Below are positions 37,601 through 40,600 of a stretch of 64,000 nucleotides of DNA, piece after piece (the stretch's first letter is position 1; each line of letters begins with the position of its first letter). The notes beneath the pieces were generated by a model. That model was not told the DNA's origin and searched no databases. It saw nothing but the letters and a program-made list of their open reading frames with translations. Made by a program: the position numbers and the translations under genes. The DNA is from Perna viridis. Taxonomy: Eukaryota. The stretch covers positions 27,156,001-27,220,000 of the forward strand of contig CM074517.1 in assembly GCA_037379345.1 (NCBI GenBank), read 5' to 3'.

Positions 37601-40600
37601 ACAATGGTACCAAGAAAGTTATGGTAACACTTAGGGTTTTGGAGTGAAATGAAAACAATGTACCCCTTCTACACAGAAAAATCGCTTAAATTGACATATT
37701 TTTCAATGTCAAAACCCCTAGAGTATTTATTCTTCAGTAAACAAAAATGGCTTATTCTAATATTTTCTGTTTAGTATTATCACAATTAATACTTCTGAGT
37801 CCTTTTGATGAATTTTGGCGATTTTCGTAGTTAGAATTTGTCAATATCTTTGGGTAAAGCATAGTCACAAAATACACGAATCTATGTTGCCAAAGTGTCG
37901 TTACCACGCGGAACTTTTAATAAAAAAAACATGTTCAACCATGTTTCCGGATGAAGCACATGCTTTTGATAAAACTAGTTTTAATATATGTCACGAAGAT
38001 TTGAATGTCATAAATCTTACAATAAACATCCACGCCTTAGTGTAATACATCAAATCCCACTGCCCTCCCCCCAACACTCCTTCCCTCTGGATAAAAACGG
38101 TCAGTGTCTTAGACATCAGATACCGTAAATTGATAAATTGTAGAATTTGAGTCAGATAGAAAGAATATGTATAATTTTGAATGATGTAATGTCAACTACT
38201 AGATCCATTCATTGTACATTTATTAATCCATTCTAGATAGTTCAGGAGTATGAAAGAGCAGTTATATTTAGACTTGGCAGAGTAGTGTCCGGTGGAGCCA
38301 AAGGACCTGGTATGTGAACAGCGGTCAAAATCATTAATCTTAAACATCTAAGGCCATTTAAAAGTGAATTTCCTTATTCTCGGGTCTCTTTGTTATGATC
38401 TTTGGTACAATGAGGATGGGGAGCGTTTTTTTCACCTATTTAATGCCCCAAAATAGGATTCTAGAATACTCAGAAGTCGGATAAGATGGGTTCAACTGTA
38501 ATCTGACTAAAATTTGGATCAATAAAGATGGACCTGATTCATGTAGTCTAAATGCTAATTTGGTTCCTGTGATAAGCCAGGAAAAGAAGATGAAATAAGG
38601 AAGGCCATATAATCAGTCCATACGTCGCCATATTTTAATAACATGTTAGTATCTATTTGTTTTATGTCTGTTCGTCCGTCACGCACAAGATTTACTCTTG
38701 AATTCATCTCTAAGGTTTCTCTTTCTGTAAGATAAGACTCCATTAACCTGAGTATTGTACGTATTAATTTTGGCTTATACACTTTGTAATGGTAATAAGC
38801 CGTTAAAACACCGGTGCCTCAAATTGAAGTTCTACTCCGGACCTGACTTTTAATGAGCAACTCTGCGGATGTACCTAGAAAAGCAGAGGACGCATACCCT
38901 ACCGGTGCACCTGGTCCTTGCACCCAATTTTAAGTGGAATCTGAGTTGCTCATTTATTTTTGTTACTTTGTATGTATTATTTTGGTTATTTTATGCTTTT
39001 TTAATGTGTTTGTTTTCCATGTCCCTGGATTACAGTTGTTTTATTTCTGCTAGAATTTTGGTTCCCTTGATTATTCTTTAACATTGCATTGAAACTTTCC
39101 CTTTGAGATTGGGACATAACATTTTTAACTCTGACACTCACGTCCTTAATGATAATAAATTGCATTGTAAGGATTTATACTTTCATTATTACAAATGCTA
39201 AATTGTAGATAGAGTGACGGGATTAAATCAAAGACCCCCCTCCTCCCCCCCCCCAAAGAAAAAAAGGACAATCGGGAAAAAATTAACAAATGACAGCTTG
39301 GACCCCTTTTTTTATCCAACCCCGTAGATGCAATTATTGAAGGAGTAATCAAGGGAACCAATGTTAAAGCGGTAATCAAAAGAATGTAATCCAGGGACAA
39401 AGACCAGACATGGAAAACAGACATACACAACAAAGAACATAAAGTAACTAAAATCATACATACAAAGTAACAAAAGTAAATGAGCAACTCGGACTCCACT
39501 AAAAACTGGGAGCATGGACCAGGTGCACCGGTAGGGTAAGCGTCCTCTGCTTTTCTAGAAACACCCGCCGAGTTGCTCATAAAAAGTCAAGTCCGGGGTG
39601 GACAAACGAGGAAAGGAAAACTATGACCCGTTGAATAAATCTGTTTTCATGGTGCTGATGGATACACCATAACGATCCACGAGTTCATGATGACGACCAT
39701 AAAACTTCGGTAGTGATGACTTCAATCTTGTAGCAACATAACCCTGTTCCAGAAGCCTATTTGTTAGAGTTCTAGTGCTATACAAAACGTCTGCGTAGTC
39801 CTGGCAAGCTCTGGCATAACGTATGAGTTGTGATATGAACACTCCATACGCAGGAGCCGAAGGGATGTTGCCACAGATGAAAGGAGAGTTGACAATTCTG
39901 AATGAAAAGTCATCACGTTTGTCGTAAAGTTTGGTCAATAGTTTTCCTTTACCATCGGTTTCTAAGTGTAGGTAAAGATATGAGGCTGACTTCACAGTGT
40001 CTGTAGTATCTTTTATCTCAAGTTCTTTTGGGTAGATGAAGACAATATATCCAACTGATAGCGGATCAGAAATGTATTCACGTTTACACCCATAGAGATG
40101 TTAGATCTTTGGTTAGTTTACAGTCTCACTTCAAAGCATATTCCTGATACGTTGTACTGTTTTCGTATTAAACTTTTATTAAAAACTATATTCAGTCACT
40201 CGGTTAATCTTTCTAGTGACATATTTTTTGTAGGCATGTTCTTCATTTATCCTTGTGTAGATGATTTTAAGAAGGTTGACCTCAGAACGACAGCATTTGA
40301 CGTTCCCCCACAAGAGGTTTGTTCCATTTTCTGGTATTGACATTTGAAAATGAGTTCATAATCAAGTTTACCATTTGACAAAGATGTTTATGGTAGGAAA
40401 ACATATAACAATTGACTTTCAGAATGTTTTTTTTTTTTATTATAGAATCAGCTCATGGGACAGACAGCTGCAGGAACGGTTATTTGATGGCGTTTTATAT
40501 ATGTATTATGAAAAAAAAACTGTTTTCAGTAAAACAAATTTGTAGAATATCAATATTGCTTTGTACGATTCAAATATTTCTATGATGAATGCAATTTCAT

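Follow-up and report, generated by a model that had tools for sequence, protein, structure and literature searches.

A conserved two-palindrome RNA motif in the 3' UTR of Naiad retroelements, a candidate dimer-dependent ribozyme

One group of Naiad retroelements carries in its 3' UTR an RNA motif of about 100 nt that is deeply conserved and a real feature of these elements. Its best-supported features are two loopless palindromes, through which the RNA likely acts as a dimer, a reading that can be held with good confidence from comparative data. The best explanation for the whole, offered tentatively and at slightly less than an even chance, is a dimer-dependent, rewired twister-sister-like ribozyme with a predicted cut at GCUY-A. 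The material was a window of 64,000 nt of Perna viridis (GCA_037379345.1, CM074517.1, positions 27,156,001-27,220,000, forward strand), and positions below refer to this stretch.

An earlier note on this DNA had described a folded element of 101 nt at 39480-39580 on the - strand, with about ten copies in the window. The motif lies there as quoted, closed by a perfect stem of 13 bp, and its folding energy of -39.3 kcal/mol (z -3.3) is equalled by 0 of 200 shuffles. All nine other places named for it align to this copy, with 95/101, 90/101, 75/79, 69/83, 78/99, 28/33, 45/51, 39/53 and 45/56 identical letters, and the element sense is on the + strand for the copies at 11462, 38853, 25700, 7368, 21566, 45055 and 6655. 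A covariance model matches six of the ten places at E<0.001. The copy at 6655-6715, which had been called a diverged variant, does represent a second family with a different P2 (GACAT/ATGTC), and this family is the older one in the genome. In element sense the motif runs P0, CGGGUG, 10-nt palindrome, RVCAG, P2a, GCUYACYC, 6-nt palindrome, CACCYG, P2b, variable hairpin and P0 (Table 1).

Table 1. Motif parts and element copies in the 64,000-nt window
Feature	Position	Strand	Basis
5'-truncated Naiad copy: end of RT ORF and ~280-nt 3' UTR	39340..40038	-	aligns to 30 genomic copies, common 3' end, scattered 5' ends
C-terminal fragment of Naiad reverse transcriptase ORF (159-aa frame)	39621..40038	-	same end as the 870-aa ORF of genomic copy L433
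Entire conserved RNA motif	39480..39580	-	begins ~40 nt past the stop codon
Outer stem P0, 5' strand	39568..39580	-	13-bp stem perfect here
CGGGUG, invariant; potential partners CACCYG or YACYC	39562..39567	-	sequence comparison
10-nt loopless palindrome TTTCTAGAAA; predicted intermolecular duplex	39552..39561	-	cluster counts, covariation, duplex energy
RVCAG; CAG putatively placed on twister-sister C6, A8, G9	39547..39551	-	
P2, 5' strand	39542..39546	-	5/5 pairs changed on both sides
GCUYACYC; GCUYA putatively placed on twister-sister G59-A63; predicted cut between 39538 and 39537	39534..39541	-	inferred
6-nt loopless palindrome ACCGGT; second predicted intermolecular duplex	39527..39532	-	cluster counts, covariation
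CACCYG, invariant	39520..39525	-	sequence comparison
P2, 3' strand	39515..39519	-	covariation
Variable hairpin; elsewhere 4 to 127 nt, missing from some clusters (among matches listed)	39493..39514	-	
Outer stem P0, 3' strand	39480..39492	-	perfect stem
Second, inverted 3'-end copy, full motif at 38853-38953	38831..39089	+	repeat alignment, covariance model
Copy with full motif at 11462-11562	11317..11698	+	repeat alignment, covariance model
Copy cut off within the 10-nt palindrome	25698..25919	+	alignment, covariance model
Older truncated copy	7367..7499	+	alignment, covariance model
Old decayed copy	21388..21775	+	alignment; missed by covariance model
Second-family fragment, P2 = GACAT/ATGTC	6655..6715	+	covariance model
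Short decayed fragment	22470..22508	-	alignment
Fragment: motif 3' half and UTR	45055..45265	+	alignment
Decayed variant	30775..30850	-	alignment; weak model match, E 1.1

Comparison of the motif rests on 23 non-bacterial clusters, unselected, among the matches listed by a metagenome scan; about eight come from one mussel-like source, and the clusters are thus partly dependent. Among these listed matches, 19 of the 23 clusters have a 10-mer with full self-complementarity (shuffle mean 0.5), and 19 have Watson-Crick self-complementarity in its central 4 nt (shuffle mean 2.3), while windows shifted by 1-4 nt from its centre are self-complementary in only 0-2 of 23. The 6-mer is a perfect palindrome in 15 of the 23 (shuffle mean 1.7; same matches). 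Palindrome sequences vary between families and self-complementarity is kept, central bases included; the earlier note had overlooked both palindromes. A 20-row alignment was hand-picked from the 23 representatives, minus five decayed ones and four with an 11-nt spacer, plus six rows comprising the window copy and five further cluster members. Here all 13 variable pairs (five in the 10-mer, five in P2, three in the 6-mer) are changed on both sides, and covariation is 0.714 against 0.163 in shuffled alignments, with 0 of 500 shuffles reaching it. Strong covariation is therefore present across clusters and within this alignment, and its reach over P2 and both palindromes across families bears out the proposal of a conserved cis-acting RNA. 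In the available 3' regions of the published consensi that hold the motif, the 10-mer is self-complementary in 12 of 12 (nine perfect, three with one G-U). Its non-Watson-Crick pairs are mostly sense-strand G-U (4 of 5 in the 20-row alignment, 3 of 3 in those 12 consensi), which points to RNA pairing and not DNA symmetry.

In all 23 clusters among the matches listed, the best P0 duplex directly adjoins the core, with significance in 12; clusters may or may not have the hairpin after P2. An inner helix AGCA..GGAC/GTCC..TGCT had been proposed, and its GGAC/GTCC part holds as P2, but the AGCA/TGCT extension was rejected, being found in 0 of 23 other clusters among the matches listed. For the suggested GGGT/ACCC pseudoknot the complementarity is conserved, but GGGUG has two possible partners, YACYC and CACCY, whose variable pyrimidines always face G, and neither pairing covaries. 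Because GGGUG is invariant and its pairing is built into the scan pattern, covariation cannot test it; likewise, the conservation of the invariant bases among scan matches is circular, as they were written into that pattern.

If each palindrome lacks a loop, what does it pair with? The adjacent central bases of a loopless palindrome are sterically unable to pair within one strand. For the 10-mer, the mean energy is -12.5 kcal/mol as a self-duplex and -0.2 as a hairpin, and together with the steric bar this makes intermolecular pairing the simplest reading; as such palindromes pair only between two molecules, the RNA is likely a homodimer. RNAcofold also favours a dimer (-89.1 versus -78.6), but its pairing differs from the model and the pseudoknot is beyond the program, and for these reasons it is not counted as support.

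The host was identified from a long genomic copy (L433) with an 870-aa ORF carrying an N-terminal GIY-YIG, CxC, DKA and a C-terminal RT, all recognized by eye; the Pfam match to RVT_1 is weak (E 0.004). These are Naiad hallmarks in the available text of PMC8557442, and the earlier assignment to Naiads is upheld. The Naiad traits of 5' truncation, partial tandems and inverted partner copies are all present among genomic copies, and the motif core lies ~225 nt upstream of their common 3' end. The 870-aa frame is open without UGA, and Rfam gave no SECIS match in the window. Exact matches to a core pattern number 7,886 in the 723-Mb genome (control 0), and matches to the element 3' end 14,621; in 840 kb sampled at even intervals the covariance model gives 67, from which ~58,000 motif copies genome-wide are extrapolated, partial copies counted. 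Other features met in the window are an open frame at 47468-48364 (-) whose Kunitz/BPTI domain (E 4.7e-16) precedes a long tail rich in Lys and Arg, a near-perfect 80-nt hairpin at 61117-61196 that matches miRNA models only below the gathering score, and other dispersed repeat families of 250-450 nt (4230-4618, 5736-6117, 26232-26602 and others). A separate locus (L011) has a 268-aa frame that is tyrosine-recombinase-like by eye.

Spread was surveyed by eye in the 3' regions of 48 of the 54 Naiad consensi in File S5 of PMC8557442, as available. Twelve of the 48 hold the motif (2 cnidarian, 5 bivalve, 4 hemichordate and 1 putative fish), and a crab element has a looser variant in which CAT replaces CAG. 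A scan of metagenome contigs with a pattern of the invariant bases only, palindromes and P2 unspecified, returned at least 122 loci. Three of these are bacterial coding DNA without any of the unspecified motif features; a Naiad RT lies 41-364 nt upstream in 35, and most others are short fragments or have little flank. Viral contigs gave 0 pattern matches. Prokaryote genomes gave five, four of them without palindromes or P2; the fifth, RAYO01000111.1 (L453, 407 nt), is a 3' fragment from a bivalve Naiad, almost identical to the published Naiad_Pmar, and its presence in a bacterial assembly is likely contamination. The motif also stands beside a Helitron-like ORF (weak DUF6570, opposite strand; L109:1315-1794 and L159) and lies downstream of pieces of a zinc-finger ORF belonging to a different type of element (L066:278-953 and L171). 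No Naiad RT was found at these loci, which are either truncated Naiad inserts or cases of motif use by other elements.

The place of the motif is one that related elements give to ribozymes. Canonical Penelope-like hammerheads sit in the pseudo-LTR, have a palindromic stem III and appear dimeric, in the available text of PMC4209133 and PMC6765202; for Naiads, canonical hammerheads are reported to be lacking (PMC8557442, available text). By eye, against consensus words, hammerhead cores were seen at the motif's slot in about 20 of the 48 available Naiad 3' ends, some with GAAA before CUGANGA, twister-like motifs in 8, and nothing recognizable in about 7. Naiad-1_Chem holds the motif and is flagged for a hammerhead core (HHR_core) too, so the exclusion of one by the other is not strict. 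A second Naiad lineage in the P. viridis genome, with an RT ~45-50% identical (e.g., L234, L243 and L250, around 1400-1520), has at this place in the UTR a twister-like motif that likewise contains two loopless palindromes; it shows 642 pattern matches, an RT upstream in 12 of 20 loci, and no relevant Rfam match in those 20. The RT tree, with 1 of 16 inner branches supported (four short rows excluded), is too unresolved to show motif exchange. According to the accessible part of PMC10085705, pistol, hatchet and twister-sister came to light because they occupy a slot that several ribozyme classes share. This position, together with the core resemblance described below, lends support to the "ribozyme substitute" option of the earlier note, cleavage being predicted.

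In twister-sister, the loop strands are G5-C6-A7-A8-G9 and G59-C60-U61-C62-A63-U64, cut between C62 and A63; G9-C60, A8-U61 and C6-A63 pair, G59 and A7 are extruded, C62 tolerates U, A63 is intolerant of U, and G5 is needed (PMC5660989, available text). Lantern ribozymes have the twister-sister loop without SL4, as far as the available text of PMC11620745 goes. Against this published description, CAG and GCUYA of the motif match eight positions: C6, A8, G9, G59, C60, U61, C62 (with U tolerated) and A63. Both strands are invariant in 12 of 12 of the motif-bearing consensi available. When the invariant letters are shuffled, the eight-position match has a chance of 0.0024, or ~0.03 for 12 ribozyme classes, counted post hoc. 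It is this match to the catalytic loop that places the predicted cut at GCUY-A. The G5-equivalent base is G in 18 of 23, A in 4 and C in 1 of the clusters among the matches listed, and an invariant G of CGGGUG could possibly stand in for it. The twister-sister G5 sits beside the scissile phosphate, and the loop that contains it is internal, bounded by stems P1 and P2 and touched by the SL4 stem-loop. A UGCAAG-type loop is the SL4 motif of twister-sister; such a loop occurs in 1 of 24 sequences, and no conserved hairpin with an invariant loop is present. In the motif A7 is absent, the U64 equivalent is C, and the two strands of the core adjoin one and the same 5-nt strand, whose pairing partner lies elsewhere, so that the twister-sister P2 cannot form. 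Rfam, a check already proposed in the earlier note, gave no relevant match in the window or in 20 diverse motif loci, and a search of the genome with RF02681, run without a positive control, found none. Given the absence of A7 and SL4, the variable G5, the strand attachment and the lack of an Rfam match, the motif is not classed as twister-sister, though it may work in a similar way.

How might such a core work in a dimer? Two copies, either in tandem in one transcript or as the two RNAs of a dimeric RT particle, would form the 10-bp and 6-bp duplexes. Across the two copies, CAG would pair with GCU through G-C and A-U, plus C with the A after the cut, and these CAG/GCUYA contacts beside the invariant G run would create two symmetric active sites. 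Cutting would free unit-length element RNA from tandem or read-through transcripts, only where two copies meet, and such partner-dependent cutting would parallel the proposal for the dimeric hammerheads of other Penelope-like elements. The core may instead form as a tight monomeric pseudoknot; the palindromes would still call for a dimer. Self-cleavage of any kind is predicted with the balance modestly in its favour. That the motif would constitute a new ribozyme class, an obligate symmetric homodimer with active sites built from the strands of both RNAs and with palindromes locking the pair, is conceivable and on the whole doubtful.

Ends of RNA and DNA were searched for a cut. One raw RNA-seq run (X24) has no pile-up of read starts or ends and has reads on both strands. 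Genomic 5' ends, mapped for 114 copies, are dispersed and form no peak where the cut is predicted; they fall in the core at an only slightly raised rate (12 of 80 copies within 40 nt, raw count). None of the nearly full-length copies has an upstream pLTR boundary able to mark a cut. These negatives are weak, because an active Penelope-type hammerhead likewise gave no such reads, needed protein to cut and was dispensable for insertion in vitro, in the available text of PMC11167929. Along 39340-40038 the strand ratio of that RNA-seq run flips: in the motif and UTR, first mates on - outnumber those on + by about 1.5-fold, and in the ORF those on + are in excess. Expression from a few loci could be behind it.

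The absence of a cut in RNA and DNA ends favours the main and strong rival, judged somewhat unlikely overall, in which the motif is a non-catalytic dimerisation or protein-binding element. Its palindromes would join two RNAs as Ty1 PAL1/PAL2 do, the Naiad protein would bind to its invariant bases, and GGGUG, by changing between its alternative partners, would act as a monomer/dimer switch loading two templates on a dimeric RT-endonuclease. All of the palindrome and dimer evidence fits this reading. Ty1 mobility requires the two palindromes by which its RNA dimerises (PMC6844567, available text), a Penelope-type protein is modelled as a dimer that cuts both DNA strands (PMC11167929, likewise), and 9 of 20 long copies have a second 3'-end copy, inverted or tandem, within the same 7-kb stretch. 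However, unrelated ribozyme-like cores in the same slot of related Naiads are unexpected for a protein-binding site, and the match to the twister-sister loop would go unexplained.

A dimeric self-cleaving ribozyme of a new class, with another site or fold and a merely coincidental likeness to twister-sister, is improbable. The slot argument and about 20 invariant bases would serve it as well, and a different fold would account for the missing G5, SL4 and P2. The low corrected chance of the eight-position match speaks against it, and cleavage is here too a prediction.

The earlier note had also offered a telomerase-RNA-like pseudoknot that binds the RT as a monomer, and this has lost ground to the point of being very improbable. 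PLE RTs are related to telomerase (PMC8557442, available text), and P2 crossed by GGGUG/CACCY or GGGUG/YACYC is formally a pseudoknot. Specific support is absent: a monomeric pseudoknot leaves the two loopless palindromes and their covarying central pairs unexplained, Rfam gave no telomerase match in the window or 20 diverse loci, and reverse transcription begins ~225 nt downstream of the core, at the common 3' end. No more probable is a DNA-level element, with palindromic sites for a dimeric protein or part of the pseudo-LTR promoter: loopless palindromes are typical of DNA sites, but these change sequence freely between families, their G-U wobbles are confined to one strand, and the covariation of P2 and P0 is that of RNA helices. 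That pLTRs contain promoters (PMC6765202, available text) is the other point in its favour.

Should the preferred reading, a dimer-dependent twister-sister-like ribozyme, hold, what would it mean? The reported lack of canonical hammerheads in Naiads had raised the idea that ribozymes are dispensable passengers (PMC8557442, available text). If the motif cuts, the Naiad ribozyme slot is filled by interchangeable classes, which would argue that self-cleavage is part of the Penelope-like life cycle, and a twister-sister-type core would be widespread in animals with new wiring and a built-in dependence on a partner RNA. Even without cutting, the motif would be a dimerisation signal in a capsid-less retroelement, bearing on the insertion of Penelope-like elements as tandem or inverted pairs. 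A description of the motif was not found in the open literature, a search covering neither subscription journals, Repbase entries nor bioRxiv supplements, nor is it described in the available parts of bioRxiv 10.64898/2026.07.22.740005 and PMC11662667. The prediction is exact: an RNA of ~100 nt, one cut site and two palindromes.

Among known systems, twister ribozymes have an NA cleavage step, a GAGG strand and an L4 AAG loop on P4. An L4-like word is found in 3 of 24 flanks and in 0 cores of the motif. The twister-like motif of other Naiads occupies the same slot, and it too has a G-rich pentamer leading into a loopless palindrome of ~10 nt, along with another palindrome, whereas the present motif is without the UAA, GAGG and L4 AAG blocks and the P4 hairpin. 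HDV ribozymes are nested double pseudoknots with a J4/2 catalytic C between P1 and P2; an HDV-like assignment was rejected, as CACCYG runs straight into P2 with no J4/2 and Rfam gave no match. Two-palindrome dimerisation signals are known as PAL1/PAL2 in the 5' region of gammaretroviruses. Ty1 PAL1/PAL2 likewise combine two palindromes and a pseudoknot in a retroelement RNA (PMC6844567, available text), but that signal lies in the 5' region of an LTR element and serves Gag packaging, whereas the motif is without Gag and has an invariant core. The minimal type-I hammerheads of Penelope-like elements share the pseudo-LTR place and a palindromic, loopless helix needing a second copy (PMC4209133, available text). 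In contrast to them, the motif has two palindromes and not one, another fold, and no CUGANGA/GAAA core; the absence of CUGANGA from the motif agrees with the earlier note, and that word occurs within about 60-100 nt in 1 of 24 sequences. Non-circularly permuted hammerheads offer the likeness of a known catalytic core rewired to a new strand order, but have a different core, act as monomers and are validated in vitro; no rewired twisters were found in the accessible part of that source (PMC10085705). With twister-sister (RF02681; PMC5660989) and lanterns (PMC11620745), as described in the available texts, the motif shares the C-A-G/G-C-U-Y-A strands with possible G-C and A-U pairs, an extruded G and a tolerant pyrimidine preceding an invariant A. 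It differs from twister-sister in that cleavage is a prediction and in that its palindromes imply a homodimer.
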